Shown here: one piece after another, positions 18,274 through 46,570 of the stretch | Layout of the letters: every line of letters starts with the position of its first letter | Numbering within the stretch: position 1 is the first letter of the stretch | DNA from: a virus | Lineage: Duplodnaviria > Caudoviricetes | Virus record (IMG/VR): IMGVR_UViG_3300033153_007620 | Span: 1-59,687 of that record | DNA: 59,687 nucleotides | Reading direction: 5' to 3' (one strand) | Made by a program: the position numbers and the translations under genes | The notes under the pieces: model-generated | The model's input: the letters and a program-made list of their open reading frames with translations, nothing else | Databases searched by the model: none | Told to the model about the DNA's origin: nothing

Positions 18274-19638
18274 GTGGGAAAAAAATTAACGACAGATATA
18301 TGCATTCAACGAGCAAAAGCAATACATGGGGATGCATACAGATATGATAAGGTGGAATATTTAGGCAAAGATAAAAATATTTTGATATATTGCAATACCC
18401 ATAAGGAATATTTTTTACAAACACCTCATAATCATTGGGCAGGAAAGGGCTGTTCTAAATGTGGGCGAGAAAAACTTTCTAAAAAACTATCCTCTAATAC
18501 AGCAGAATTTATTGAAAAAGCTAAAATAATTCATGGGGAGATATACTCATATTCAAAAACAGAATATAAAAATAATAATATAAAATTAGAAATATATTGT
18601 AATATTCACAAGGAACATTTTTCACAAACACCAGCATCACATCTTAATGGAAATGGATGTCCAAAATGTGGTTTTGAAAAAATAAGATCAGATAAGCTAC
18701 TTAGTCAAGAAGAATTCATGATTAAAGCTAAAACTTTAAATGGAAGTTCTTTAGATTACACAAATACCATATATAAAAATATGATAACTCCAATCGAAGT
18801 ACATTGCCCTACACATGGTATTTTTTCACAGTTGCCTTTAAATCACCTTAGACGTAAAGGCTGTCCTTTATGTAATATAGAAGCTAAACATTTTGATAGT
18901 AGAAATAATACTGAAAGTTTTATAGGAGTATCTTCGGAAATACATAATAACAAGTATGATTACTCTTTAACAAATTATGAGTTTTCAAATAAAAAAGTTA
19001 AAATCATCTGCCCTATACATGGGATGTTTGAACAGACCCCCACAGACCATTTGGCTGGAAAAGGTTGTAAAAAATGCGGATTTGAAAAAGTATGGGATAG
19101 CAGAGGAAGAACTACTACAGAAGAGTTTATTGCAAAGGCAAAAAAAGTCCATAAGAATACTTATGACTATTCCGTATCAAAGTATGTAAAAAGTAATCAC
19201 AAGATTAAAATTATATGTAGAAAGCATGGTTTATTTGAGCAGACACCAAATAAACATCTTTGTGGTAGTGGTTGTCCAGAGTGCGCTAGAGAAAATAGAT
19301 CTGGAAAAAATAGCCCACGATATAAAGATGGTAAATCTGATATTCGACGTAAAGAGAGAAAAACACCAGAAAATGAAAAATGGGCAAAAGATGTGAAAAA
19401 ACAAAAAACATCTTGTGATTGTTGTGAGGATGTCTTTGACAAAATTACTATATCTCACGCACATCATTTAAATTCGTGGGCAGATTATCCAAAAGAAAGA
19501 TATGATTTGAATAATGGCGTAGCAATATGTGGTGTTTGTCATTGGGAATTTCACGGAAAGTATGGACATGGAGAAAATACAATGGGACAGTATTATCAAT
19601 TCAAACAGATAAAACAAATGGAGAATATCTATGGCTAA
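18274..19638 (+). CDS. HNH homing endonuclease with 5 DUF723-like Zn repeats
   Basis: C-terminal CDCC..HAHHLNSW..NNGVAICGVCHWEFH; GTG start after AGGAGG. Confidence 0.8.
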   Translation: MGKKLTTDICIQRAKAIHGDAYRYDKVEYLGKDKNILIYCNTHKEYFLQTPHNHWAGKGCSKCGREKLSKKLSSNTAEFIEKAKIIHGEIYSYSKTEYKNNNIKLEIYCNIHKEHFSQTPASHLNGNGCPKCGFEKIRSDKLLSQEEFMIKAKTLNGSSLDYTNTIYKNMITPIEVHCPTHGIFSQLPLNHLRRKGCPLCNIEAKHFDSRNNTESFIGVSSEIHNNKYDYSLTNYEFSNKKVKIICPIHGMFEQTPTDHLAGKGCKKCGFEKVWDSRGRTTTEEFIAKAKKVHKNTYDYSVSKYVKSNHKIKIICRKHGLFEQTPNKHLCGSGCPECARENRSGKNSPRYKDGKSDIRRKERKTPENEKWAKDVKKQKTSCDCCEDVFDKITISHAHHLNSWADYPKERYDLNNGVAICGVCHWEFHGKYGHGENTMGQYYQFKQIKQMENIYG

Positions 19639-23381: not shown

Positions 23382-23496
23382 TTGACAAATAATGGATATA
23401 GTTTTTCATACTTATAGTATGAAAAATTAATAACTGTCTTTTTCTCGATCGAGACTGACAGTGAAAATTGTCAGGAGAGGGAGACAGATTATTATG
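23382..23496 (+). promoter_or_regulatory. HNH leader copy A: promoter, minigene MKN, RBS-sequestering hairpin
   Basis: TTGACA-19-CATACT-6-ATGAAAAATTAA; stem CTGTCTTTTTCTC/GAGAGGGAGACAG. Confidence 0.75.
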
Positions 23497-24455
23497 AGTA
23501 AAAAATTATCACAAGAAGAATGGGTTGAAAAAGCATACAAAATGCACGGAGATAAGTATGGCTATTCTAAATCTATATATAAAGGAAATAAAATTCCAGT
23601 AGATATTTATTGTAAGATCCATAAAAAATATTTTACACAAACTCCTAAAAACCATATGAGAGGACAAGGCTGTCCTGATTGTGGGAGGGAAAGTTCCATA
23701 CAAGCTGTAAGGTACACACAAGAGAAATTTTTTAAAAAATGTATAAAAATTCATGGAGATAAGTATGACTACTCTACATCTATTTATTTAGGGTCTGAAC
23801 AAGAAGTAGAGATTTTCTGTAAAAAGCATAATTTGTATTTTACACAAAAAGCTTCTGCGCATTTAAGAGGACATGGATGCCCCACATGCTCCAAGAATAA
23901 GAAATCGAATAATAATGAGTTTATTACAAAATCCATGCAAATCCATGCAAATATATACAATTATTGTTTAGTAAATTATATTAATAATAAAACAAAAGTT
24001 AAGATTATTTGTAATAAACATGGAATTTTTGCAATTAGCCCGGATCACCATTTGCGTGGGAATGGTGGCAAAGGAAGAGGATGTCCCACATGTTCCAAAG
24101 AGAATATAAGTAATAGAATTACTGGCAAAACAAATCCAAATTATAAACATGGAAGAACTAAATATTGCAGCAATGAAAGAAATACCCCTGAGAATTACCA
24201 ATGGATGAAAGCAATTAAAAAAGATAAGATTTGCTGTGATTGTTGTGATGTAGTTTTTCTAAAGAAATGAAAAGTGTAGCACATCATTTAAATTCTTGGA
24301 TGGATAATATGGATCAAAGGTATAACTTGAATAATGGGGTTTGTATTTGTGAAAAATGTCATGCTAAATTCCATAATGGCTATGGTTGGGGACATAATTC
24401 AAAACAACAATATGAAAATTTTAAAGAGAGGGAATATCATGACAACAAGCAATGA
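23494..24455 (+). pseudogene. HNH endonuclease with DUF723-like repeats, -1 frameshift at T5 run 24254-24258
   Basis: CDCCDVVF continues as SKEMKSVAHHLNSW..NNGVCICEKCHAKFH in the -1 frame, collinear with paralog 18274. Confidence 0.75.
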
Positions 24456-25539: not shown

Positions 25540-26826
25540 ATGACAAATACAGAATGGCTGTTAGAAAAATGCCCATCACCAATGGATAGTGCTGATCTGA
25601 TAAATTTATATGATGAGCTATGTGAGTATCAGGGATCTCATATGTCTTCTGAATCATTTAAACGGCTTTGTAGGAAAACAGCACAAGAATATAGAGACAA
25701 TGCAGAAATATCAACAGAAACAGATAATTTAAAAGATACAGAAGTATTATTAGATAAATTGAATGAGACAGATAATAAATTAGAGTTATCTTTGAAGAGC
25801 TATAAGATTCAGGATGTAGAGGCCGCCGCTAAAATAGCTGGGATAGATTTGAGCAAGTGGAGGTGTATTAGGAAGAAAGTTAAAGCAACACAGAACGCGT
25901 CTAATCCTTATTTTATCGTTGAAGGTTCTTTTGCCCCTAAAGAAGAAGATGAGATCACGCCTGAAAAATACGCCGAAAGATTCAAAGATTTGGTGGAAGA
26001 TTATGAACCTCCGGTTCCACCACTCCTAAAGACAAAAATAGACCCTAAAAACAGAATGGCTGAGATTTGCATCATGGACTTTCACTACGGACAGTTAAGT
26101 TGGGATGAAGAAACTAGAGATGATAACTATAATATTGAGATAGCTTCTAAATTGTTGGATGGCACAATTGATCATTTTATTCAAGAAACAGAAGGAAAGA
26201 TTGACAGATATGTACTTCCAATCGGAAATGACTTTTTTAATTGCAATACGAAAGCCAATACAACATTTGGAGGAACACCACAAGATGAAGATGGGCATTT
26301 CAAACATACTCATCTTACAGCAGAAGCACTCTGGGTAAAGCAAATAGATAAATTAAATACTGTTGCAGATGTAGAGGTTGTCTTAATTTCTGGCAATCAC
26401 GATGAGGAAAGACTCTGGTATCTTGGGCAGTTTTTATTTGCTTGGTATAGAAATAATTCATCTGTGATTATAGATAATTCTCCTCCACAGAGAAAATATA
26501 TTAGATATGGTAGAAATCTTTTAGGCTTTACACACGGAAATAAAGAAATCCGAAACTCTCTGCCTTTATTGATGGCACAGGAAATGCCTATAGATTTCTC
26601 TGAAACTAAATTTCGAGAATGGAATATTGGACACCTACATAGCTATTCTGAAAAGAATACAAGACTTGTTAAAGAAACTCATGGGATTAGGGAAATTGTA
26701 TTACCTTCGTTAGTACCTTTGGACTCATGGCACTCTGGTAAAGGATATATGCATTTGAATGAGGCTATGTGTTTTATATGGGATAAAGAGAAAGGAAAGG
26801 TGATGACACATTATTTCCATCCATAA
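25540..26826 (+). CDS. Calcineurin-like metallophosphoesterase
   Basis: DFHYG, GNDFFN, GNHD, THG, GHLH motifs. Confidence 0.8.
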   Translation: MTNTEWLLEKCPSPMDSADLINLYDELCEYQGSHMSSESFKRLCRKTAQEYRDNAEISTETDNLKDTEVLLDKLNETDNKLELSLKSYKIQDVEAAAKIAGIDLSKWRCIRKKVKATQNASNPYFIVEGSFAPKEEDEITPEKYAERFKDLVEDYEPPVPPLLKTKIDPKNRMAEICIMDFHYGQLSWDEETRDDNYNIEIASKLLDGTIDHFIQETEGKIDRYVLPIGNDFFNCNTKANTTFGGTPQDEDGHFKHTHLTAEALWVKQIDKLNTVADVEVVLISGNHDEERLWYLGQFLFAWYRNNSSVIIDNSPPQRKYIRYGRNLLGFTHGNKEIRNSLPLLMAQEMPIDFSETKFREWNIGHLHSYSEKNTRLVKETHGIREIVLPSLVPLDSWHSGKGYMHLNEAMCFIWDKEKGKVMTHYFHP

Positions 26827-26839
26827 AATAAAAAAGTAC

Positions 26840-26882
26840 TTGACAAATTCTCCTATATGGATTATTGTTGTTATCAGGAGGA
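26840..26882 (+). promoter_or_regulatory. Promoter whose spacer carries an anti-SD for the downstream HNH gene
   Basis: TTGACA-17-TATTGT; TTCTCCT (26848-54) complementary to AGGAGGA (26876-82). Confidence 0.55.
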
Positions 26883-26885
26883 AAT

Positions 26886-27671
26886 ATGAAAACTTTTGAG
26901 AAGAATATGAAAGAAATATTAGGAGATGATATTTATTTTAGTAAAAATAAAACAGAAAGGAAAATAGCATTAAATAAAGTGGGATATAAACTATGCCATA
27001 CCTGTGAAACAATTAAAAAGTTAGACGAATTTGGAAAAGGCAAATATACGTGGGATGGAAAAAATCATGCTTGCCTTTCTTGTATGATAAAGAAGCGCAC
27101 AACGTATAAGAAGACACTTACGCCTGAGCAGTTAGAGAATCAGAAAAAATATACAAGAAATTATCAAAAAAGTTGGAGAGCTAATTTAAAAAAGAATGAT
27201 ATTGAAAAATTCAGAGAACTAAATAGGAAAAAGAAAGCACAGTTCAAAAAGAATCACCCAGAAAAATTTAGAGAAATGATGAAACTTCAGGCTAGGAGAA
27301 GACGTTCTCACAATGCCCATAGCCGAATACGACATACATTAGCTGCAAGGATGGTATCCGCTTTACAAAGACAAGATACATCTAAAAAAAGTAGCACATT
27401 TGATCTTATAGGAGAAACACCTGCGTTTCTAGTAAATTATCTCAACACAATTGCATCCAACGGACTAAAATATGGAGATAAAAATGTACAAGTAGATCAC
27501 ATAATTCCATGTGCATTTTTTGATCTAACAAGTGAATTAGAACAAAGAATATGTTTTAACTATAGAAATTTACAATTACTTTTAGCAAATGATAATAGGA
27601 TAAAGAGTGACACTCTGCCATATAATTTAGATGAATTATATAATGAAATAGAAGGACATCATCAACGATGA
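26886..27671 (+). CDS. HNH homing endonuclease (1 Zn module)
   Basis: VDHIIPCAFFDL..CFNYRNLQLL..DN..K. Confidence 0.8.
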   Translation: MKTFEKNMKEILGDDIYFSKNKTERKIALNKVGYKLCHTCETIKKLDEFGKGKYTWDGKNHACLSCMIKKRTTYKKTLTPEQLENQKKYTRNYQKSWRANLKKNDIEKFRELNRKKKAQFKKNHPEKFREMMKLQARRRRSHNAHSRIRHTLAARMVSALQRQDTSKKSSTFDLIGETPAFLVNYLNTIASNGLKYGDKNVQVDHIIPCAFFDLTSELEQRICFNYRNLQLLLANDNRIKSDTLPYNLDELYNEIEGHHQR

Positions 27672-27681
27672 GGCATCACAG

Positions 27682-27735
27682 AGGCTGTATAGGTTGGTTA
27701 CTTTTGCGAGAGGTTAACCTATACAGCTTATTTTT
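27682..27735 (+). terminator. Intrinsic terminator
   Basis: GCTGTATAGGTT/AACCTATACAGC stem plus T tract. Confidence 0.7.
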
Positions 27736-27786
27736 ATGCTTGACAAACTTTTCTACTTATGTTATATTGTATGGAGTATACTAATG

Positions 27787-27870
27787 CAGGTAGGAGGATT
27801 TTATGAGTAGTTACAATGAGAAATTAAAACAGGTAGGAGGATTATGAGTAGTTACAATGAGAAATTAAAA
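27787..27870 (+). repeat. Tandem duplication (43 and 41 bp) of an RBS plus first 9 codons
   Basis: CAGGTAGGAGGATT(TT)ATGAGTAGTTACAATGAGAAATTAAAA twice. Confidence 0.95.
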
Positions 27871-28182
27871 CACCCTTTGTGACAGAAGAAGAGGCTAGAA
27901 ATATTTCGTAGAGATAAATTTGCATGCACCGTATGTGGTAATACTGAGAGTACTTTACATGCCCATCATAAGGAGTATATGGTAGGGAAGGAGCCTTGGG
28001 AACATCCAAATGATATGATTACAACGTTGTGCGAATATTGCCATAAATTGGAACACAATATTACTACAAACATTGGCAATAAAAAGCAGAGCAAAGACAT
28101 TAGATGGCAGAAAGCAAAATTAATTCTACTTGAATACCACAATTTTAAATGGAGAACTATACTTAAAGCAAGATTAAATTAA
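27844..28182 (+). pseudogene. Small HNH endonuclease with in-frame TGA at codon 13
   Basis: MSSYNEKLKHPL*QKKRLEIFRRDKFACTVCG..LHAHH..LCEYCH; the stop sits where W is expected. Confidence 0.75.
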
Positions 28183-29144: not shown

Positions 29145-29912
29145 ATGAGAAAAGTGACATTAGAAGAATTTAAAAGTTGGAATCCTACAGAAGAATTATT
29201 AGAATTTTTTATTATAAATAATTTTGATAATTTTGATTTTGATATGATTGACAACATTGGAATGGATGATGGATGGTATATTAGAGATTTGAGTGAATTG
29301 TCTAAAGTAAAAAGAAAGTTTGATGTTCATGGAAAAATAATTAGAGAGGAATACCCAGATATGGTATTTTTGAATCATTATGATAAACATGGATACATAA
29401 TAGAGGAATTGGTTGCTACAAACAGATATCGTATTTTTGAGTATGATGACAAAGGCTCCTGCCGAGTTACATATCCAGAAGGATATATGATTGTCAAAGA
29501 TTTATCAGAAATTTTTAGGAATAATGGGTATACTCGTTATCCTATGAAAGCTCATGTTGATACAAATAGAGTTTATGAATATGATTCTACAGGTAATATA
29601 ATAAAATCTATTTACTTGCCAAAATGCACCATTACTGAATATAAAATTGAATACAATAATGGCACTATTTCTTCTATAAAAAAAGTACATAGTGGAAAAA
29701 GTATAGATTTAAACGATATAGATGAAATAAAAGAAAATACCTTACGAGAGCTTATTCTAGCAACATATAATTATAGATGCGATGAAGAGAAAGATAGGAT
29801 TTCCAAAATACAAAAAGAGGATCTACAGAAGATCAATAATATCGAAGATACTGTTGTACGCAGGGAGGAACTAAAGAAATATATGAACGAACACGCCTGT
29901 TCAGAATACTGA
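29145..29912 (+). CDS. YD/RHS-like repeat protein with scaffold-like C-terminal motif
   Basis: YDKHGYIIEE, FEYDDKG, YEYDSTGNIIK; ends LQKINNIEDTVVRREELKKYM. Confidence 0.6.
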   Translation: MRKVTLEEFKSWNPTEELLEFFIINNFDNFDFDMIDNIGMDDGWYIRDLSELSKVKRKFDVHGKIIREEYPDMVFLNHYDKHGYIIEELVATNRYRIFEYDDKGSCRVTYPEGYMIVKDLSEIFRNNGYTRYPMKAHVDTNRVYEYDSTGNIIKSIYLPKCTITEYKIEYNNGTISSIKKVHSGKSIDLNDIDEIKENTLRELILATYNYRCDEEKDRISKIQKEDLQKINNIEDTVVRREELKKYMNEHACSEY

Positions 29913-29993
29913 GTAAATGGATAAACAATAACTTTCTTTCTCTTATGCTAGAACGATGGTTATGTACTATTAGGAGAAAGAAAGGTTATTATG
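29905..29993 (+). promoter_or_regulatory. HNH leader copy B (degenerate): minigene MDKQ and RBS hairpin
   Basis: AATACT-6-ATGGATAAACAATAA; stem AATAACTTTCTTTCTCTT/AGGAGAAAGAAAGGTTATT. Confidence 0.65.
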
Positions 29994-31160
29994 GGAAAGA
30001 GTAAATGGAAGATAGACGAGTATGGAAGACAGTGTACTAAATGTGGAGAATATAAATTATGGGAAGAATTTGGTAAAAGTAAAAGAGGAGTACAGGGATA
30101 TAAATGCCAATGTAAATCTTGTAGAAACCAAAAAAGTGCAAAAAAACGAAGGGATATAGGTATTAAAATAAGTACCAAATGGAAAATAGATGAGCATGGC
30201 AGGGAATGTGCTTGTTGTAAGAAATATAAATCGTGGGATAACTTTACTAAATCAAAATCAAGGAGAACTGGTTATTCTAGTACATGTAGAGTTTGTAATA
30301 ATAAAATTCAAATGAGGAAAAGAAGAAATACTGGAGTTCAAATAAGGCATGTATATAAAATAGATGATAAAGGTAGAGAATGTACTGTTTGTGGTGTTTA
30401 TAAGTTATACGATGAGTTTTCTCCAAGTAAAAAGGGTATGTATGGATACCAAAGCAAATGCAGATTCTGTGTAAATAAAATGGGAATACAACAAAGAAGA
30501 GTGGAAGGGATTATAGCAAGACCAAAATACTATATGGATACTAACGGTAGATACTGTAGTAAATGTAAACAATACAAAGTATGGAAAAATTTTAATAAAG
30601 ATAATAAAGATAATAAAGGTATAAATGAATATGGGAGTATATGTAAATCATGTAAAGCAAAAAGAAGTGCACAATATCATAAACAAAATAAAGAAATTAT
30701 AGCAAAGAAAGGAGCCAAATGGCGTAGAGAAAATAAAGAACACATAAAAGAACGTCAGAAGATTAGACTTCAAAATGACCCAGAGTATAAACTGACAAGA
30801 AAGCTTCGTAGTAGAGTACGTAGTGCTATAAAAGCTCAAAACACTAAAAAGTCCGGTCACACAATGAAGCTCATTGGTTGCTCTCCAAAATTCCTTATTA
30901 ACCATTTTAATACTGCAGCTTCTAATGGTTTAAAATTTGGAAACAAAGACATAGAAGTGGATCACATCATTCCCTGTATATCATTTAATTTATCTGATGA
31001 ATTAGAACAATACATTTGTTTTAACTGGAGAAATCAGCAATTACTAACAGCGTTTGATAATCGGTCTAAACATGATACACCTCCTGATAATGTCGAAGAA
31101 TTATATAATGACATAAAAGAGCATGTCTTAAAAGACAATCCTCATTTAATTATAAATTAA
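29991..31160 (+). CDS. HNH homing endonuclease with 4 Zn modules
   Basis: VDHIIPCISFNL..CFNWRNQQLL..DN.SK. Confidence 0.8.
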   Translation: MGKSKWKIDEYGRQCTKCGEYKLWEEFGKSKRGVQGYKCQCKSCRNQKSAKKRRDIGIKISTKWKIDEHGRECACCKKYKSWDNFTKSKSRRTGYSSTCRVCNNKIQMRKRRNTGVQIRHVYKIDDKGRECTVCGVYKLYDEFSPSKKGMYGYQSKCRFCVNKMGIQQRRVEGIIARPKYYMDTNGRYCSKCKQYKVWKNFNKDNKDNKGINEYGSICKSCKAKRSAQYHKQNKEIIAKKGAKWRRENKEHIKERQKIRLQNDPEYKLTRKLRSRVRSAIKAQNTKKSGHTMKLIGCSPKFLINHFNTAASNGLKFGNKDIEVDHIIPCISFNLSDELEQYICFNWRNQQLLTAFDNRSKHDTPPDNVEELYNDIKEHVLKDNPHLIIN

Positions 31161-37975: not shown

Positions 37976-38996
37976 AATTCAAAGAAAATATGCGATACCC
38001 ATTGCTGGGCTAGTTTTAATATCTGTTGCTATAGCATTCACTTTTTTAAGTTCCTTTCAGATGCGAGTATTCGATAATCAGGTTATTAAATCTGGAATAG
38101 AAAAGAATATGGAGATAGAGTATGTCAGAGCAGCACAATTTCAATTAATCTCAGCAGAATTGGACCATGCTCTTGATGGTGCCGGTATTCTTGGACGTAT
38201 TCAAATTGCTAAAATTGAAAAAGAGATTTTAGCATTAGACAACTTAGCTTTTCATCTTGAAACTTTTAATAATGATGGAAATAAGATTGCCAAAATATTA
38301 GATAAATACACAAGGGGGATTTTTTATGGGAAACCCTCAGATGCTAATGATCCCTTTATAATGATAGTAAATATAAATAAAGAAGCTATTATTGCAACAG
38401 ACACATCTGAGAATTGTGCAGTTTTCAATGAAGATGGAACACCACAAAGAACCCGTACTTTAGATGAAGAGTATCCTATGCATGCAAATGTTCTTCTTGC
38501 GGAAACAGCTTTTCCTAGAATTGTAATGAATGATGCATGGACGTTAAAAACACCTATATTTTTTCAATTCTTAGGGGATACTCCTTTACTTTTAGAATCT
38601 TTTGATCTTGAGGGACTACGAACAAACTTCCTGTTGAATGAAGGACGTTGGGATATCACTTTTAAAAATTTGGAATTTCTTGTACCAACTTACTTGCATG
38701 GAGATAAAGATGTTTTAGGAGTTCAAAGGGTCACAAATAGAGGATATTTAAATGATGATATAAAAATTATTATCTATGTTGTAGCTTTTAAATTCTTTGA
38801 TTATATTGAAGAAGATCCACGGATAATTGAATACTTAGCGAAATATGATTTCAGAGTTACAGAGATTGAAAATTATCATATTGCCGAAGTTGAACTATTA
38901 GAAGCTAATATAATTACTTATAAGCTTGCAAGTGTATTGCTGAATTTTATTATTGGACTAGCTATGCTATCACTCTATGTAATCTTAAAGGAGTGA
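37965..38996 (+). CDS. Membrane protein with N- and C-terminal TM helices
   Basis: IPIAGLVLISVAIAFTFL and LASVLLNFIIGLAMLSLYVIL. Confidence 0.6.
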   Translation: MKHKIQRKYAIPIAGLVLISVAIAFTFLSSFQMRVFDNQVIKSGIEKNMEIEYVRAAQFQLISAELDHALDGAGILGRIQIAKIEKEILALDNLAFHLETFNNDGNKIAKILDKYTRGIFYGKPSDANDPFIMIVNINKEAIIATDTSENCAVFNEDGTPQRTRTLDEEYPMHANVLLAETAFPRIVMNDAWTLKTPIFFQFLGDTPLLLESFDLEGLRTNFLLNEGRWDITFKNLEFLVPTYLHGDKDVLGVQRVTNRGYLNDDIKIIIYVVAFKFFDYIEEDPRIIEYLAKYDFRVTEIENYHIAEVELLEANIITYKLASVLLNFIIGLAMLSLYVILKE

Positions 38997-39000
38997 TGAT

Positions 39001-39336
39001 ATGTGGTATGATATAGCACAGACTTTTGTGCTGGCGTTTTTTGGTACGGTGGCTAGATTTTTGATGCACCGCAAATTATTTACTGGGGATTTAGTAGCCT
39101 TCCCCATTTTGATAACATTATTAATGCTTTTATTTTCTACAAAATTAGAAGGTTTTAATAGAGAAACAATGTGGGGTATTTCTGGAATTGCTGGATTTAC
39201 ACTTCCAACTTTTAAAAATTGGTTGGGTAATACAACTATAGCAAAATTGATTCATGCATATTTCACCGGAGCTAAAAGTGGAGCAGATAGTATGCTTGAA
39301 AAACTTGGTGAAGAATTAGAAAAGAATGAGGATTAA
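39001..39336 (+). CDS. Putative holin
   Basis: 111 aa, about 3 TM segments, charged C-tail. Confidence 0.5.
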   Translation: MWYDIAQTFVLAFFGTVARFLMHRKLFTGDLVAFPILITLLMLLFSTKLEGFNRETMWGISGIAGFTLPTFKNWLGNTTIAKLIHAYFTGAKSGADSMLEKLGEELEKNED

Positions 39337-39339
39337 TAC

Positions 39340-39458
39340 TTGACAGATTTAGTATTCCATGCTATAATGATAGTATGAGTAAATAAAAATAACTTTCTTT
39401 CTCTCGATCGAGACTGGTAGTTATAAAAATTATCAGGAGAGAAAGGAAGATTATTATG
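39340..39458 (+). promoter_or_regulatory. HNH leader copy C: promoter, minigene MSK, RBS hairpin
   Basis: TTGACA-17-TATAAT-6-ATGAGTAAATAA; stem CTTTCTTTCTCTC/GAGAGAAAGGAAG. Confidence 0.8.
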
Positions 39459-40595
39459 AAAAAAAGTGAATGTTTAATAACAGAAGAAGGAAGGGAATGC
39501 ACTTGTTGTGGTGTATTTAAAAAATGGGAAGGATACCATAAAGATAAAACTAGTTCAACTGGACATGGTACACAATGTAAAGTTTGTAAAAATAAAAAAG
39601 ATGCCAAACGAAGAAGATCTCAAGGAATGAATATAAGATCAGAATATGAAGTAGACGAGCACGGTAGAGAATGTACTTGTTGTGGAGAATATAAGTTATA
39701 TGCTGAATTTTATAAAGATAAAAATGGCATTAATAGCTATGACAGTAGATGTAAACTATGTACTAATACAATAAATACAGAAAAAAGAAGATTGGCAGGA
39801 ATGAAACCCCTATCTGAATCAAAGATTGATGATGATGGCAGAGAATGTTCTGAGTGTGGCATTTATAAATTATGGAAAGGTTTCAACAAACAGACAACAG
39901 GCATAAATGGACATAGTAATAATTGTAGAGTATGTGCAGCAAAAAGGCATTCAGAATGGTATAAAAAGAGTACAAAGAATAAAAAGAGTCGAAGGGATAT
40001 AGCACAGGAGAAATATTCAATAGATGAATATGGGCGCAAATGTACTGAATGTGGTGTGTATAAGTTCTGGGAAAATTTCTATGCTCAGAAAACTGGCATT
40101 CATGAGCATACTGCTAAATGTAAATCTAAAAAAACAAAAAGACACAAGAAATACCAAGAAGAACATAGAGAAGAGGCAAATAAACGTGATAGAGATAGAC
40201 GTAAAAATGACCCAGAATACCGATTAAAGGATATACTTCGTAGAAGATTACATGACGCTCTTACTTCTCAAAATGCTAAAAAATTTGACCATACAATGGA
40301 TCTCATAGGCTGTACTCCCAAGTTTCTTCTTAACCACCTGAACACAGTTGCTTCTAATGGATTGAAATTCGAAGATAAAGAAATTCAAGTAGATCATATT
40401 ATTCCGTGTGCAGCATTTAATTTACAAGACGAATTAGAGCAGCTTGTTTGTTTTAATTGGAGAAATTGCCAACTATTAACGGCAACAGATAATAGTTCTA
40501 AAAATGATAAATTGCCCATTAACGCCGAAGAATTACGTAATGAAATAAAAGAGGAAGTATTAAAAGAACGCCCACATTTAGCAAATACTGTATAA
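39456..40595 (+). CDS. HNH homing endonuclease with 4 Zn modules
   Basis: VDHIIPCAAFNL..CFNWRNCQLL..DNSSK. Confidence 0.8.
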   Translation: MKKSECLITEEGRECTCCGVFKKWEGYHKDKTSSTGHGTQCKVCKNKKDAKRRRSQGMNIRSEYEVDEHGRECTCCGEYKLYAEFYKDKNGINSYDSRCKLCTNTINTEKRRLAGMKPLSESKIDDDGRECSECGIYKLWKGFNKQTTGINGHSNNCRVCAAKRHSEWYKKSTKNKKSRRDIAQEKYSIDEYGRKCTECGVYKFWENFYAQKTGIHEHTAKCKSKKTKRHKKYQEEHREEANKRDRDRRKNDPEYRLKDILRRRLHDALTSQNAKKFDHTMDLIGCTPKFLLNHLNTVASNGLKFEDKEIQVDHIIPCAAFNLQDELEQLVCFNWRNCQLLTATDNSSKNDKLPINAEELRNEIKEEVLKERPHLANTV

Positions 40596-40610
40596 CTTAA
40601 TGGACAATAA

Positions 40611-41177
40611 ATGTCCGAAGGAAAGGAAATGACTATTACATTTGTTGTAGAAGATGGCACAGGATTAAGCGATGCCACTTCTTACTGTACTGTAGACGAG
40701 TTTAAACAATATTGGTTTAATAAAAATTATGACTATAACAATCTTACTGAAGATCAAATTAAACGTCTTTTAAATGATGTGACTGCCTATATTGATAATA
40801 GTTACAGAAATGGTTTCCCCGGAAAAAGGGATACCACTACACAAAGCTTGGAATGGGGACGAGAAGATGCTTATTATTTGGATGGATTTACTATTGATGA
40901 TGGAACTGTCCCTCCTGAAATAAAATCGGCAGTTAATGAAATGTCGTATCTTGTTACCCAAGGAAATGATCCAGAAGCTATTATTAGTAAGTCTGGTAAA
41001 ATATTAAAAGAGGCTTCTCAGGTAGATGTTATAAAGGAAAGTTTTACATATGAGGAAGGTTCTCCTATGTCACAGGATATTTATACATCAGTTGATAATA
41101 TTTTGAGTAGAATCACAGGAGGCGTCAAAGATGCCTACGTTATTAAAGTAATCAGGGTCGGAGGTGAATCCGCCTAA
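40611..41177 (+). CDS. Head-tail adaptor (DnaT-like phage family)
   Basis: FVVEDGTGLSDATSY..QSLEWGR..VPPEIKSA. Confidence 0.75.
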   Translation: MSEGKEMTITFVVEDGTGLSDATSYCTVDEFKQYWFNKNYDYNNLTEDQIKRLLNDVTAYIDNSYRNGFPGKRDTTTQSLEWGREDAYYLDGFTIDDGTVPPEIKSAVNEMSYLVTQGNDPEAIISKSGKILKEASQVDVIKESFTYEEGSPMSQDIYTSVDNILSRITGGVKDAYVIKVIRVGGESA

Positions 41178-41191
41178 CAAGGGGAGAATAA

Positions 41192-41587
41192 ATGGCAACA
41201 ATTTTTTTGGCGAATTCGGAAATATATGTCGTTGCAAGTAATATGGATCAGGCGGTGGAAAAATACTATGAAAATAAATCCACATATCCAACTACAATGA
41301 TAACATTTAAAGGTCCAGATTATACACTAACAGAATCAACGGTAGCAGCAATCACACCTGTGGTGTTACCAGCAGGAGCAGTTACGGCAGGATGTACTGT
41401 AATTCCAGATACAGTGGCATACATTAAAGAGGGGGATCAAATAACTCTTACAGCAACAGGAGCTGGAGCATATCCTACCTTCGTTAATTGGACAGACTCT
41501 GAAAGTGCAGTACTATCTACTGATAACCCTTACACTTATACCGCAACAGCATCTGATATTACAATCAATGGTAACTTTTCCGCATAA
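41192..41587 (+). CDS. Virion protein with InlB B-repeat/Ig-like domain
   Basis: EGDQITLTAT..FVNWTD..LSTDNPYTYT..ITINGNF. Confidence 0.6.
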   Translation: MATIFLANSEIYVVASNMDQAVEKYYENKSTYPTTMITFKGPDYTLTESTVAAITPVVLPAGAVTAGCTVIPDTVAYIKEGDQITLTATGAGAYPTFVNWTDSESAVLSTDNPYTYTATASDITINGNFSA

Positions 41588-41769
41588 TGGATATTGAAGA
41601 ACTTACAAACTTGGTTAAAGAGCAAATGGAAAACAGGAATTATGAAGAAAGTATAGAATTCCTCAAGGCTGTGGGAGTTATTGATGAAGATGGTTGTTTG
41701 TCGGAGAACTTTTATTCACGAGAGGTTATTGAAGAATATAACAAAGAGGTAATTAATGGCAAAGTATAA
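41587..41769 (+). CDS. Hypothetical protein
   Basis: TAATG coupling. Confidence 0.45.
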   Translation: MDIEELTNLVKEQMENRNYEESIEFLKAVGVIDEDGCLSENFYSREVIEEYNKEVINGKV

Positions 41770-42163
41770 TTATGATCCAATAACTGCTAAGGCTTTAGAA
41801 CTCGTGAATAAATATGGTACGGATATATATTTGTTGAAAGATAGTAGTTTATTATGGAAAAAGAAATATGATAGGGTGTTATTGAAAGAGTATTGGGAGA
41901 ACACAGATACTACGGAGATAGTTTTTGTTCAGCCGGAGATGGAAGAATATCTGGGAGATGGTGTATTAACGAAGTTTAAGCAGGAAGAGATTGATGGGAA
42001 ATTAATTAAGAAGACTGATACATTGATTATTGCTACTAAAATTCCAGAGCCGGAGCTAGGTGATAAAATAAGAATAGGAAGTACGGAGTACAAGTACATC
42101 AATCATGAATCTGTAATGCCTAATAATGTAGTTATCATATATAAGGTGCAGGTACGAATTTAA
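41756..42163 (+). CDS. Head closure protein
   Basis: EEIDGKLIKKTD..PELGDKI..IYKVQVR; position. Confidence 0.65.
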   Translation: MAKYNYDPITAKALELVNKYGTDIYLLKDSSLLWKKKYDRVLLKEYWENTDTTEIVFVQPEMEEYLGDGVLTKFKQEEIDGKLIKKTDTLIIATKIPEPELGDKIRIGSTEYKYINHESVMPNNVVIIYKVQVRI

Positions 42164-42171
42164 AAAAGTGC

Positions 42172-42200
42172 TTGACAGATTTAGCGAATGGGTGTATAAT
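42172..42200 (+). promoter_or_regulatory. sigma70-type promoter inside neck module
   Basis: AAAAGTGC-TTGACA-17-TATAAT. Confidence 0.7.
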
Positions 42201-42212
42201 AAGAGGTAAGGG

Positions 42213-42722
42213 ATGGGAAACTCTAAGAAGTTTATTGCTGATATCGAAAAATTTGGGGAAGCGGTAGAAGCGAGTTCCGAATTAGTTAAGAGAGAAGTGG
42301 CACGTAATTTATTTACCAAGATTATAGATAGAACACCTATTTGGTTCCTCCATGAAGATCCCGGAGGTACGAAAGGAGCATGGAGACCGTCAAATGGCAG
42401 ACCAATAACAGCATTCATTAATCGAAAAGATCCTAGCGGTGAGGCAGTAAAAAAGATAATGGAACAAGTTATTGCACGATCCAAAGCTGGAAAATCTATA
42501 TATCTAACCAATGCTTCCAAACACATATTTGTTTTAGAGGACGGGAAATTTCCGATTGGTGGGAAAGGTTCTTGGAATAGTATTACTCAGCAATTTGAAA
42601 AAAGATCTGAAGGTGGATATTCAACTCAATTAAAAGGTGCAGGAATGGTTAAGATCAGCTTATCCGAATTCGAAGAAATTGTAGCCAGAGCTGTGAGAAA
42701 ATACCGAGTGAAAATATATTAA
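42213..42722 (+). CDS. Neck/tail-completion protein (HK97 gp10-like)
   Basis: IIDRTP..G..W..IYLTN..LEDG..GYSTQ..GMVKIS. Confidence 0.7.
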   Translation: MGNSKKFIADIEKFGEAVEASSELVKREVARNLFTKIIDRTPIWFLHEDPGGTKGAWRPSNGRPITAFINRKDPSGEAVKKIMEQVIARSKAGKSIYLTNASKHIFVLEDGKFPIGGKGSWNSITQQFEKRSEGGYSTQLKGAGMVKISLSEFEEIVARAVRKYRVKIY

Positions 42723-42746
42723 AGATAAAATAAAATAAAAAAGTAC

Positions 42747-42775
42747 TTGACAAATAACGGATTCCGTGTTATACT
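42747..42775 (+). promoter_or_regulatory. sigma70-type promoter inside neck module
   Basis: AAAAGTAC-TTGACA-17-TATACT. Confidence 0.7.
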
Positions 42776-42794
42776 TATAGGAGTGAAATAAAAA

Positions 42795-43229
42795 ATGATT
42801 GAACTTGACATCAAAAGCGGGCTTATGGAACAATTAAATTCTTTCATTCAAGCCTACCCGATAGAAATAAAAGATACAGGCATTTCATACGATCCTGATG
42901 TGAGCACTCCATTTTTAGAAGTTTCTGTACTTTATGGCGAACCGAATCAAGTCACGTTCGGCAGTATAGCCCAGAATAGGTATAATGGTATCCTGCAAAT
43001 AGATATCAATATTCCATCAGGACAGGGGGAAGGTAAGCTCAAAGAAATACTGAGAGCTATTGAGCCATTTTTTCGCAGAGGAATTTCAATAACACACACT
43101 ACAGATTTATCTGAGCAAGTGGTTATACGAGTACTGAAAACTTATTTGAGTGATAACATCTATGAAAGTAAGCCAAACATGTATGCTAGGATTTTAAATA
43201 TACAGTGGAGATGTGATTTGGATAATTAA
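42795..43229 (+). CDS. Tail terminator (DUF4128-like)
   Basis: RYNGILQIDINIPSGQG..FFRRG. Confidence 0.7.
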   Translation: MIELDIKSGLMEQLNSFIQAYPIEIKDTGISYDPDVSTPFLEVSVLYGEPNQVTFGSIAQNRYNGILQIDINIPSGQGEGKLKEILRAIEPFFRRGISITHTTDLSEQVVIRVLKTYLSDNIYESKPNMYARILNIQWRCDLDN

Positions 43230-43236
43230 AAAGTGC

Positions 43237-43359
43237 TTGACAGATTTAGGAAAGTGTGTTATACTTACAGTATGAAAAAATTAAATTAATAACTGTCTTC
43301 TTCTTCGTACGAAGCTGATAGTTGTAAAATTATCAGGAAGAGGGAGACAGTGTTTTATG
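43237..43359 (+). promoter_or_regulatory. HNH leader copy D: promoter, minigene MKKLN, RBS hairpin
   Basis: TTGACA-17-TATACT-6-ATGAAAAAATTAAATTAA; stem CTGTCTTCTTCTTC/GAAGAGGGAGACAG. Confidence 0.8.
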
Positions 43360-44286
43360 CCAAAGAAGTTAACGTATGAGTTTGTAAAGGGGATGTTTGA
43401 GGAAGGTGGATGTGAACTTGTTTCAACGGAGTATGTAAATGATGATACCAGATTACAATACATGTGTTCATGTGGAAATCTTGAGATACAAAAAATTACA
43501 TATGCAAGTTTCCGAAAAGGACGTAGATGTAAGAAATGTGGTACAGAAAGAAGAGCTTCCCTCAGACGCCATTCTTACGCTTTTATACAATCTGAATTTG
43601 AGAAAGCAGGATGTAAATTACTCTCATCAGAATATATGAATAAAGATACAATCTTAAAGTACATGTGTTCATGCGGTAATTCAGAAGTACAGAAGATTAC
43701 TTATGGGGCGTTCCGAATAGGACACCGCTGTAAAAAATGTGGTATTGAAAAAATTGCTTCTTCCAGACGATTATCCTATGATTATGTTAAATCAGAATTT
43801 GAAAAAGCTGGATGCAAATTACTTTCAACAGAATACATAAATAATAGACAATATCTGAAATATTATTGTTCGTGTGGAAATCCTAAAATACAAAAGATTG
43901 TTTATAGTGCTTTTCAAAAGGGACATCGTTGCAACAAATGTGGCATCGAAAAACGTCAAGGTGAAAATAGCCACAATTGGAGTTATACTTTAACACAAGA
44001 GGAAAGGGAAACAGGTCGCAATTATCCTGAATACAAGCAATGGATAAAAGATATCTATAAACGTGATCATTACGCTTGTCAAAAATGTGGGAGCAAAAAA
44101 AGTGGGAATCTAAATGCTCATCATATTGCTGGTTATACTCAAAATAAAGATCTAAGGATAGAACTTTCAAATGGTGTAACATTATGTAAAGATTGCCACA
44201 AAGAGTTCCATAAAAAATATTCTTATACTAAGTCCACTCCAGCAGATTTTCAAGAGTTTATGCAGGAAAAGAAAGTTCCTAACTAG
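43357..44286 (+). CDS. HNH homing endonuclease with 3 GC.L.S.EY..YxCSCGN..RCxxC repeats
   Basis: RDHYACQKCG..LNAHHI..NGVTLCKDCHKEFH. Confidence 0.85.
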   Translation: MPKKLTYEFVKGMFEEGGCELVSTEYVNDDTRLQYMCSCGNLEIQKITYASFRKGRRCKKCGTERRASLRRHSYAFIQSEFEKAGCKLLSSEYMNKDTILKYMCSCGNSEVQKITYGAFRIGHRCKKCGIEKIASSRRLSYDYVKSEFEKAGCKLLSTEYINNRQYLKYYCSCGNPKIQKIVYSAFQKGHRCNKCGIEKRQGENSHNWSYTLTQEERETGRNYPEYKQWIKDIYKRDHYACQKCGSKKSGNLNAHHIAGYTQNKDLRIELSNGVTLCKDCHKEFHKKYSYTKSTPADFQEFMQEKKVPN

Positions 44287-44417
44287 AGTTATTAGTATGC
44301 AAGCCAAATCTGACATAAACAATTAAATCACAAATCATAGTGCATCATTTCAGGAGAAATTATCCACTAATTATTATAAACAAAGAGACTCACAATAGAT
44401 GAGAAAAGGAGATAAGA

Positions 44418-45854
44418 ATGGCTAATGGATCAGAACGTAAAATAGTGTATAGTATTGAGGATTCACCGGGAGAATTAAACAGCCCAAACCTCTGCAAAAC
44501 ATTGAGGACGGTTACTGGGAGTGGTATATCTAATGATCGTACTGCGATCACAAGTAACGAGATAAGAGATGACAGACAAATAATCTTCAGCAAATTGGGT
44601 AATACGGCTCCAGCATTGACTGTGCCATTTGAATTTTCCTATGATAGCTATGATGATTTAATTGCATGTGCTATGGGGAATGTATGGACAGGAGGAATGA
44701 CAGCAACAATCAACATGGACATGTCAACAGGTGGTGTTATAACAAGAAATGATGGAGGATCATGGTTAGTTGATGGTTATACAGTTGGAACTTTTGTGAC
44801 TATTGAAGGTCTTGTTGTGACCGCTGAAGATGGGTCCTACGAGGTTACTGTCGTAACGGCAAATGATTTAACTGTGCAGGAAATACCTGCTGCTGGTGCA
44901 GCCACATTTACAGCCGAAGTTGGTGGTGACATCACTTTCACAGCCGGAGCTTATGGTGAGAAAATTATCACAAGTGTCTCAGATACAGTGACCGTTGTAG
45001 CTTCTACAAAGACAATAACTCTAGCCGGAACCCTCACTTGGGATGTCAATATTGAAGTCGGAGATCGATTGTATTTTAACGATTTCGTTAATGCCGGAAA
45101 CAATGGTTGGAAAGAAGTAACTGGCAGAAGTGGTTTAGCATTGACCTTCGCAAATGATACACTTGTGGATGAAGTTATCAATAGTGCTTCCAGTCTTACG
45201 TTTTCAACTGCTGCTGGAATTATTACAGTAGGCACTGATCTCAAAACACTCTTCATAGAAGAGCAGTTCACAGATGCAACTGAGTTTGTGTATATACAGG
45301 GTGCAAAAGTTGATTCATTCAATCTATCCATGCAGCCGGAGGCGATTCTGACTGGAGATTTTGGGATCCAAGGTCAGAAGTATTCAGGATATTCAGGAGC
45401 AACATCTTCCGATAGTGTAGAAGCTTCAAATATAAATACTGCATTTGACAGTTTTACCGGATTTATGGATCTTGGAGGAATTGCTACCTGTGTCGTATCA
45501 GGATTCGACTTTTCCCTTGCGAATGGACTCAGCCGAGACTACGCTCTACTTGAGCAGGACGCTTGTAGAATTGGAGAAGGGAGATCCACTACAACTGCCA
45601 GCCTCTCTGGTTTCTTTATCGATTCTACGGTTGTTGATCTGTACGACAATGAAACATATTTTAAAGGTGTATTAAACTTTCAGGATGTAGACGGTAATGG
45701 GTATACTTTCGTTTTTCCAAGAATCAAACTTAATAGTCATTCCTTAGATATTCCTGAGAACAGCATTACTTTTTCAGCAGGCGCTGACATTTTGGGTGGT
45801 TCAACCGATGGACTTACTAATGTAGCAATACACAGAATTCCAGTGATAAGTTAG
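44418..45854 (+). CDS. Major tail tube protein
   Basis: MANGS..SNEIRDDRQI..FEFSYDSYDDLI..FIEEQFTD; position before chaperone and TMP. Confidence 0.8.
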   Translation: MANGSERKIVYSIEDSPGELNSPNLCKTLRTVTGSGISNDRTAITSNEIRDDRQIIFSKLGNTAPALTVPFEFSYDSYDDLIACAMGNVWTGGMTATINMDMSTGGVITRNDGGSWLVDGYTVGTFVTIEGLVVTAEDGSYEVTVVTANDLTVQEIPAAGAATFTAEVGGDITFTAGAYGEKIITSVSDTVTVVASTKTITLAGTLTWDVNIEVGDRLYFNDFVNAGNNGWKEVTGRSGLALTFANDTLVDEVINSASSLTFSTAAGIITVGTDLKTLFIEEQFTDATEFVYIQGAKVDSFNLSMQPEAILTGDFGIQGQKYSGYSGATSSDSVEASNINTAFDSFTGFMDLGGIATCVVSGFDFSLANGLSRDYALLEQDACRIGEGRSTTTASLSGFFIDSTVVDLYDNETYFKGVLNFQDVDGNGYTFVFPRIKLNSHSLDIPENSITFSAGADILGGSTDGLTNVAIHRIPVIS

Positions 45855-45910
45855 AATTTAAATTAGTTATTAAGTCAGGTGCACACTGGCTTCTTAATAT
45901 TCTCTTGTGT

Positions 45911-45941
45911 GCAGTGGTGGTTTAGGGCACCACTGCTTTTT
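45911..45941 (+). terminator. Intrinsic terminator after tail tube
   Basis: GCAGTGGTG/CACCACTGC plus TTTTT. Confidence 0.7.
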
Positions 45942-45976
45942 ATTGCAAGAGAAAACAAAAACATAAGAGGAAATTT

Positions 45977-46570
45977 ATGAATAAAGAATTAATTGAAGAA
46001 TGGAAAGATATTGAGGGATACGAAGGAAAATACCAAATAAGTAATTATGGATATGTTAAATCCCTTGCACAAGGCAATCCAAAAAAAGTACAAGATAGGA
46101 TTTTAAAATTTGGGAAAAATCACAAAGGCTATTTACGTGCAGTACTATATCAAAATGGAAAACGTAAATACATTGCTGTCCATAAATTAGTAGCACAAAC
46201 ATTCTTATTCGATTATGATTCTGCAAAGCAAATAGATCATAAAGATTTGAATAGATTAAATAATCGAGTAGGTAATTTGAGAATGTGTACACAGGGACAA
46301 AATCAAGGAAATTCACCTAAAATAACTAAGAAATGTTCTTCTATATTTAAAGGGGTTCGTTGGAGAAAAGACAATCGGAAGTGGAGTACACACATCACTT
46401 ATGATCACAAGACTTATGTATTAGGTTGTTTTACCACGCAAATAAAAGCAGCTAAAGCCTATGATAGAAAGGCTATTGAATTATTTGGGGAGTTTGTCTA
46501 CACTAATGAGAAAAATGGATTATACCAACAATATTATATATTGCTAGAAGAAGGAAAGATTGGAGCATAG
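45977..46570 (+). CDS. NUMOD4-HNH-AP2 homing endonuclease
   Basis: EEWKDIEGYEGKYQISNYG; IDHKDLNRLNNRVGNLR; SSIFKGV.W..AAKAYD. Confidence 0.9.
   Translation: MNKELIEEWKDIEGYEGKYQISNYGYVKSLAQGNPKKVQDRILKFGKNHKGYLRAVLYQNGKRKYIAVHKLVAQTFLFDYDSAKQIDHKDLNRLNNRVGNLRMCTQGQNQGNSPKITKKCSSIFKGVRWRKDNRKWSTHITYDHKTYVLGCFTTQIKAAKAYDRKAIELFGEFVYTNEKNGLYQQYYILLEEGKIGA

Follow-up and report, generated by a model that had tools for sequence, protein, structure and literature searches.

Leaders with a predicted ribosome-binding-site lock and a candidate 5'-terminal minigene precede endonuclease genes in a phage contig

Four endonuclease genes in the structural module of a phage contig are each preceded by a copy of the same leader, the main feature of which is a very stable hairpin that takes up the Shine-Dalgarno (SD) sequence of the gene and that, on the strength of the folding models described below, very likely acts as a translational lock on the ribosome-binding site (RBS). 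An RBS lock on selfish endonuclease genes is of a known kind, and appears here in an unstudied phage lineage; the layout, in which the promoter would lie outside the lock and a mini-ORF would stand between the two, appears to be new. The reading that we put forward, with a probability of about 35% and from five sequences belonging to two phages, is that each cassette combines the lock with a promoter of its own and with a minigene that would serve as the key. Copies C and D (and A weakly) would bring a sigma-70-type promoter upstream of the entire hairpin. A ribosome would load on the SD-less ATG with which a transcript from the cassette's own promoter is predicted to begin or, in the variant that copy B may represent, would reinitiate there 4 nt past the stop codon of the upstream gene; it would read three to five codons, terminate at the foot of the stem, and melt the lowest base pairs. 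The minigene stop and the locked start codon would be adjacent in space in the folded form, and the start-proximal part of the SD, once exposed, could be taken by a 30S subunit or by the same ribosome, which would invade the rest. In read-through RNA the ATG would be internal, hence silent. The leader might in this way act as a gate for transcript origin, in which a start-stop ORF readable only as the very 5' end of an RNA opens the endonuclease gene while the read-through copy stays silent, a further step that we regard as doubtful. We infer the transcription start, the leaderless initiation and the unlocking step from sequence.

The window, by which we mean the whole stretch of DNA analysed, is a virus contig of 59,687 bp from IMG/VR, with 33% G+C and an estimated completeness of 35%. 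The phage is uncultured, its portal protein shares less than 30% identity with the portal of any isolate, and the host is probably a low-G+C Gram-positive bacterium. Leaders A (23382), B (29905), C (39340) and D (43237) all lie inside the structural module, each 5' of an endonuclease gene: A in the interval between the portal gene and a Mu F-like head gene, B ahead of a gene that is also present in the relative G003 (a related phage of 168 kb), C ahead of a DnaT_2-like gene, and D in the interval between the tail-terminator and tail-tube genes (Table 1). Among GenBank phages no near match was found for window positions 38000-41500, and a search in distant mode with the leader returned just three short matches at chance level. 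The DnaT_2-like gene (40611..41177) starts 15 nt past the stop codon of gene C with no visible SD (window 40596-40613); an SD is present in the G003 homologue. The window gene may need C for its translation, or may be initiated independently of an SD.

Table 1. Positions in the window of the leader elements and of the genes that they precede.
Feature	Position	Strand	Remarks
Copy A promoter-like region	23382..23412	+	TTGACA 23382-87, 19-nt spacer, CATACT 23407-12
Copy A inverted repeat	23402..23426	+	11 + 3 + 11, perfect, read from sequence
Copy A mini-ORF MKN	23419..23430	+	ATG AAA AAT TAA, 6 nt after -10; second in-frame TAA follows; no SD upstream
Copy A two-tier hairpin	23431..23493	+	main stem 23434-46/23475-87, inner stem, 8-nt one-sided bulge
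Gene A	23494..24270	+	DUF4379 repeats; PHROG 559/681; start ATG 23494
Small ORF after gene A	24267..24455	+	overlaps gene A; second half of HNH motif
Copy B -10-like box and mini-ORF MDKQ	29905..29931	+	AATACT 29905-10, no -35, 6 nt, ATG 29917..TAA 29931
Copy B hairpin (predicted RBS lock)	29927..29990	+	main stem from 29932; inner stem degenerate; -20.3 kcal/mol, 70.8 bits
Gene B	29991..31160	+	389 aa; endonuclease VII/HNH-type by PHROG 1035, 2255
Copy C promoter (predicted)	39340..39368	+	TTGACA 39340, 17 nt, TATAAT 39363-68, TG extension, 12/12
Copy C mini-ORF MSK	39375..39386	+	ATG AGT AAA TAA, 6 nt after -10; another in-frame TAA 39390-92
Copy C two-tier hairpin	39388..39455	+	main stem 39393-405/39437-49; -25.6 kcal/mol, 93.5 bits
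Gene C	39456..40595	+	379 aa; paralog of B, 44-48% identity
Copy D promoter (predicted)	43237..43265	+	TTGACA 43237, 17 nt, TATACT 43260-65, TG extension, 11/12
Copy D mini-ORF MKKLN	43272..43289	+	ATG 6 nt after -10; second in-frame TAA follows
Copy D two-tier hairpin	43290..43356	+	main stem 43293-306/43337-50; -30.1 kcal/mol
Gene D	43357..44286	+	309 aa; HNH endonuclease, PF01844

The elements that a preliminary description had assigned to the four leaders are all present when the sequence is read, at the positions collected in Table 1. In the hairpin, a pyrimidine-rich 5' arm of 13-14 bp pairs with the purine-rich SD tract and is capped by an inner stem of 8-9 bp; at the outer end, A/U pairing extends the main stem up to the start codon. 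The minigene TAA, which had been placed at the foot of the stem, does lie inside this weak A/U extension, but it stands 3, 0, 6 and 3 nt (A, B, C and D, respectively) before the main stem. The calculated folding energies of A, B, C and D are -29.0, -20.3, -25.6 and -30.1 kcal/mol, with z scores of -5.3, -3.7, -5.4 and -6.2, and for no copy was any of 200 shuffles as good. That the hairpin locks the RBS is borne out in these models by positions -17 to -5, which are unpaired with a mean probability of 0.07-0.09; the SD window is 0.86-0.94 paired in the stable structure. A lock of -20 to -30 kcal/mol is too stable for breathing to open it, and translation would therefore be off unless the stem were actively opened.

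The hairpin, in which pairing is kept while the stem sequences differ, is upheld by both folding energy and covariation. Among the four copies, three of the 26 pairs are changed on both sides. When L220 is added, a locus of G003 that is the only member of the leader family found outside the window, 96.0% of 126 cells are paired, compared with a shuffle mean of 91.6 and with none of 500 shuffles reaching the observed value; if the partners are slid, pairing falls to 48-65% (maximum 65.2%). Four of the 26 pairs are then double-changed, a count reached by 30 of 500 shuffles, and the covariation score is 0.304 versus 0.219 (reached by 0/500), values that describe five related sequences from two phages in an alignment fitted to the model.

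Locks of this sort are not a general property of the genes in these phages. An upstream fold of -20 kcal/mol or better together with an SD at least 0.85 paired, thresholds that were set after seeing the ranking, is found in 7/16 endonuclease-like ORFs and in 1/271 other ORFs (Fisher p 3e-9), the count covering the 287 ORFs called by heuristics in the window and G003. The sole ORF outside the endonuclease class is an unknown one of 123 aa, and the lock is specific to endonuclease genes. Not every such gene carries it, ordinary SD leaders being found at the other endonuclease paralogs of the window (1508, 1806, about 12.7 kb, 18274 and 26886).

A covariance model built from the four copies and run over the whole window with filters off gave 16 matches at E <= 10, namely the four copies (E <= 3.3e-13), four reverse-strand echoes of these and eight weak others. 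The best match that is not a copy (41777-41859, 18.7 bits, E 0.17) lies within the start of ORF 41756..42163 and is probably due to chance. None of the four hairpins is listed by a scan for intrinsic terminators; the tail after the stem is ATTATTATG or similar, with no combination of G+C-rich stem and T run. Rfam gave no match at gathering score over the whole window and, around C and D at E <= 1, only chance-level matches to miRNA precursors (17-20 bits versus cut-offs of 80-96).

Where the 5' arm meets the bulge there is a perfect 12-nt palindrome (window 23443-23454, 39402-39413 and 43301-43312; L220 1518-1529), the central tetranucleotide of which is self-complementary in every variant (GATC in A and C, GTAC in D, GCGC in L220), although the loop does not need it to be. 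The palindrome also allows an alternative three-way fold, which falls short of the main fold by 4-6 kcal/mol. It might serve as a dimer site at the DNA level, as an RNA-RNA contact or as a trap for the open state.

The leaders are, as judged by their alignment, homologous, and paralogs of one cassette: with copy C as query, BLAST finds the other three copies in the record of the window at E values of 1e-16, 2.6e-11 and 2e-6, and the mean column identity of the four aligned leaders is 67%. The genes behind them had been described as unrelated and of three architectures. They instead form two protein lineages, with A and D sharing PHROG 559 and 681 and with B and C being paralogs at 44-48% identity. 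Their designation as four HNH genes holds insofar as D matches the Pfam HNH family and A, B and C match PHROG endonuclease/HNH families; ORF A itself has no HNH motif. The second half of the motif of gene A is found in the next small ORF (24267..24455, 62 aa), which overlaps the gene A stop by ATGA. Since the paralog 18274..19638 has both parts of the motif within one ORF, gene A is split or frameshifted.

The subtype of the stem tracks the protein lineage, one arm sequence being common to A and D and another to B and C. G003, however, has a gene of B/C type (L220) that carries a leader arm of A/D type, from which it follows that leader and ORF have been exchanged at least once. The presence of one leader on different endonuclease families likewise implies that regulatory cassettes and nuclease ORFs recombine as separate modules. 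The sites of insertion in G003 bear on the size of the unit. At the D site, where the whole D cassette is missing, only about 24 nt separate the homologues of the tail-terminator and tail-tube genes; the 1.19-kb D cassette, promoter included, is therefore the variable unit. At the A site of G003 a promoter of the same family is present and the endonuclease gene is absent. The four leaders may be viewed as copies of a modular 5' cassette of free-standing homing-endonuclease genes inserted among structural genes, homing itself being predicted from sequence.

Two further places in the window touch on this family. The leader of the endonuclease paralog 26886..27671 (window 26826-26888) shares its -35 box and the flank upstream of it with copy A, and its SD resembles the 3' side of the inner stem. 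It has neither minigene nor hairpin and looks like an unlocked version of the cassette. Just downstream, inspection by eye of positions 27685-28180 revealed a terminator-like hairpin with a T run (27685-27736), a strong promoter (27740), and, at about 27787-27872, a tandem duplication of ~43 nt that includes an SD and a start, with a small HNH-motif frame interrupted near its start. This stretch is probably a decaying endonuclease gene.

A promoter upstream of the whole hairpin had been proposed for all copies. It is consensus-like in C and D, poor in A and absent in B, and the reservations attached to the original proposal proved justified, A having a 19-nt spacer (and a poor -10 box) and B having no -35 box. 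Copies C and D are among the four best sigma-70-type matches in positions 38000-46000, the other two of which (42172 and 42747) precede ordinary structural genes; the best promoter matches of the leaders precede the 5' arm by 50-55 nt. We consider it probable that C and D have an active promoter of their own. The promoter-like region of A is probably weak; it is absent from the list given by the promoter scan, which admits spacers of 16-18 nt only. A -35 box and upstream flank of one family are common to A, C, D and the sites at 26840 and 42172. Within the hairpin, no -10-like box is conserved across A-D and L220.

The ordinary promoters of the window phage are followed by an SD within the next 10-20 nt, and the leaders have an SD-less ATG there instead. 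Transcription starts about 7 nt after the -10 box, and a spacing of 6 nt would by this geometry put +1 on the A of the minigene ATG. In copies A, C and D the base at -1 relative to this A is T.

The SD-less ATG minigene 6 nt after the -10 box was confirmed in all four copies, in frame with a TAA that lies 0-6 nt before the stem. The start is ATG in each case, invariant despite diverged flanks, and the stretch from the -10 box to the ATG contains no purine-rich SD. The distance from the ATG to the AATAAC that follows is 7, 7, 10 and 13 nt, so that the ATG is in frame with the conserved TAA in 4/4 copies. The frame would be kept by chance in about one case in nine, with at most two or three independent events; because the copies are paralogs of one cassette, neither the spacing nor the ATG amounts to four independent observations. 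Of the 138 promoter-like sites listed in the window phage and G003, 12 have an ATG 5-7 nt downstream of the -10-like box, and an ATG exactly 6 nt past any TANNNT occurs at a base rate of 244/14,279. The minigene ATG at 6-nt spacing is near chance. In A, C and D it forms part of an AGTATGA block that is conserved whole and that mirrors the -10 box, perfectly so in A, where, as had been noted, the ATG lies inside a perfect 11 + 3 + 11 inverted repeat (23402-23426) that also spans the -10-like box. It may be, therefore, that the ATG belongs to a DNA palindrome or operator and is not a start codon. In copy B the AATACT box overlaps the stop codon TGA (29910-12) of ORF 29145..29912, and the ATG of the mini-ORF comes 4 nt after that TGA.

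As to how a minigene ribosome might act, the preliminary description had it unwinding the anti-SD arm. This does not hold as worded, the minigene ending before the stem; the opening seen in modelling is partial and concerns the lowest part only. When a ribosome is modelled at the stop codon, positions -17 to -5 go from a mean unpaired probability of 0.07-0.09 up to 0.14-0.62 if 6 nt are melted (with copy C, at 0.14, showing no change) and up to 0.44-0.77 if 10 nt are melted, and the structure left in A, C and D amounts to -16 to -24 kcal/mol. Given the strength of the lock, an active opener is needed if the genes are expressed at all; the minigene ribosome as key would be a coherent mechanism, which we hold tentatively. 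Conservation of the frame would fit the opposite role equally well, with the stops keeping stray leaderless ribosomes out of the lock. The expectation that homologous leaders would keep the minigene and its spacing was contradicted by L220, which has neither a good promoter nor a 5'-terminal ATG, and this counts against the claim. Elsewhere in G003 (85643-85720), a promoter of consensus sequence (TTGACA, 17 nt, TATAAT), 5 nt and ATG AAG TAA are followed by an SD-led start without a hairpin. This may be a second promoter-proximal mini-ORF of the lineage, or may be chance.

If the minigene is not the key, the lock could be a permanent throttle, the ATG being incidental or part of a promoter, +1 palindrome or operator, and the endonuclease being made at trace level or after an unrelated event. 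In a guard version of this alternative, the in-frame tandem TAA codons would stop ribosomes loaded on the ATG before the stem is opened. We think it rather unlikely overall, yet it has several observations on its side: L220 and the two other locked genes of G003 have no minigene, the ATG occurs at its spacing near chance, and the AGTATGA mirror of the -10 box is kept in A, C and D and perfect in A. The guard version can also call on TAA TAA in A and D, and TAA AAA TAA in C, right before the stem, and an early stop that limits the harm of an unwanted start is discussed for E. coli start-stops (10.1101/520783). What weighs against a throttle is that -25 to -30 kcal/mol would leave essentially zero equilibrium translation, and still the ORFs of B, C and D (309-389 aa) have stayed intact, their nuclease domains recognisable; furthermore, B retains the ATG after losing the mirror sequence.

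Alternatively, the two-tier hairpin, with about 22 bp in total and a one-sided bulge, might be an RNase III-like processing site, cleavage either freeing the SD and activating the gene or destroying the message. Translation that depends on processing is known for some lambda and T7 genes. Such a role would also account for locks without a minigene (L220), and the total helix length and bulge position are constant in A, C, D and L220; but an 8-nt bulge on one strand only, the degenerate inner stem of B and the other shapes of the unrelated G003 locks make it distinctly unlikely. Control in the style of T4, in which a second promoter within the hairpin would give a transcript that lacks the 5' arm and is alone translated, as described for I-TevI, segB and mobE (PMC2988022), is very improbable, for while the apical loops of C and D are A/T-rich with -10-like hexamers, no hexamer is conserved across the copies, L220 has none, and the strong promoters lie upstream of the entire hairpin.

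The proposal of a minigene key has relatives among known systems. Translational coupling via a structured RBS is familiar, as is reinitiation at the hairpin-locked start of lysis genes in RNA phages. The coupling proposed here is similar in that a closed start would be served by ribosomes from a nearby upstream stop; it differs in that the upstream ORF has three to five codons, is SD-less and stops before the stem, and in that about 60 nt of chain separate the stop from the start. In attenuation of the erm/cat type, an SD-led leader peptide is long enough for the ribosome to stall and alternative hairpins are of similar stability. The leader ORFs of the window, in contrast, have only those few codons and no SD, and the only alternative fold found is the one weaker by 4-6 kcal/mol.

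The closest known counterparts of the window leaders are the RBS-sequestering hairpins described for I-TevI, I-TevII, I-TevIII and segB of T4 and for mobE of the Aeromonas phage Aeh1 (PMC2988022). The window leaders resemble these, whose genes are intron-encoded or free-standing, in that a very stable hairpin buries the SD of an endonuclease gene in a long polycistronic region and in that there is a promoter of the gene's own. The relieving promoter of the T4 and Aeh1 genes gives a transcript that lacks part of the hairpin, whereas here both kinds of transcript would carry the lock and would differ only at the 5' end. A promoter transcript lacking part of the inhibitory structure, the mark of the T4/Aeh1 type, is not found for the window leaders.

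In E. coli, 5'-terminal uAUGs on SD-led mRNAs bind 70S ribosomes and, in ptrB and rcnR, affect downstream expression, with coupling and standby loading both discussed (PMC4965119; Beck, Fleming and Janssen 2016). The likeness lies in an AUG at the 5' end of an mRNA ahead of an SD-led gene, the 5' end being in our case predicted. Those genes are cellular and experimentally tested and have no strong RBS-locking hairpin described for them, and the leaders discussed here are known from sequence alone. In mycobacteria, leaderless regulatory short ORFs form a first cistron that controls downstream genes; they are reported to be cysteine-sensing attenuators in Actinobacteria, whereas the phage ORFs have three to five codons at the foot of an RBS hairpin (10.1101/834739). 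Start-stop and minimal ORFs were detected in E. coli by retapamulin ribosome profiling; they share with the phage minigenes their extreme shortness, an irrelevant product and a role that would be regulatory, and differ from them in having SD-like sequences, an intragenic position and mild negative effects (10.1101/520783). The design had been thought undescribed. As regards its parts, this has to be qualified, 5'-terminal uORFs ahead of SD-led genes (PMC4965119) and leaderless regulatory uORFs (10.1101/834739) being in print; as regards the combination, a 5'-terminal mini-ORF coupled to the RBS lock of an endonuclease gene was not found described in the literature full text searched, most subscription journals lying outside this.

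Homing-endonuclease genes need to be expressed without damage to the operons that they invade, and T4-like phages solve this with a hairpin over the RBS and a late promoter within it that gets round the block. Where, as here, the promoter would stand outside the lock, the genes are either opened in a manner undescribed for their kind or near-silent. If the minigene is the key, the leader would be a compact device of ~120 nt that ties translation to the origin of transcription, with possible use in synthetic biology, and it would bear on the handling by ribosomes of 5'-terminal AUGs and structured starts. A gate for transcript origin, if true, would be a bacterial counterpart of short-ORF-dependent stem bypass, by which a selfish gene distinguishes RNA from its own promoter from RNA of the host operon.

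Further members of the family were sought in several ways. An exact-pattern scan of IMG/VR with the 5' arm motif gave at least 113 stretches, and the 95 nt past each match were folded (117 loci); among the 40 most stable of the folded matches, the leader shape was seen only in the window's own four (L001-L004). A second exact-pattern scan of IMG/VR, for arm, SD and start in succession, gave 13 stretches, and the covariance model had no match in these or in six loci with relatives of gene D. The same pattern on metagenome contigs gave 80 stretches, two of which match the model weakly and badly aligned (22.6 and 19.8 bits), and a pattern for the A/D/L220 subtype found the site of L220 itself only; all of these scans return exact matches, which diverged members would escape, and the collections searched may not include records close to the window. 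Protein searches in IMG/VR found no relative of gene C and six relatives of gene D, none with this leader. The covariance model also had no match in the TerL-related phages G001, G002, G004, G005 and G006, three of which (G004, G001 and G002) together have one C-like gene, with an ordinary SD.

G003 has three locks. Two of them are hairpins unrelated in sequence to the family and are likewise without such a minigene; the unrelated sequences indicate that the principle of locking recurs independently. The third, L220, lies about 85 nt past a CRISPR-like array (L220 1060-1420; G003 about 56386-56740), which has five 32-nt repeats and one degenerate repeat with a period of 65-66 and spacers of 29-34 nt, and which is thus directly upstream of a hairpin-locked endonuclease gene. 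Coupling of L220 to an upstream gene was considered and rejected, as the 'ORF' that ends 3 nt before the stem is the CRISPR-like array read as protein. The spacers gave short chance matches only against the window, from which the repeat is absent; the repeat had no exact match in genome contigs, and a 20-mer of it gave three single matches that are not arrays. At L221 (1408-1575; G003 72139-72306), an endonuclease gene comes directly after a tRNA-Met gene and its SD is locked by a 5' arm which, we presume, resembles the 3' end of 16S rRNA.
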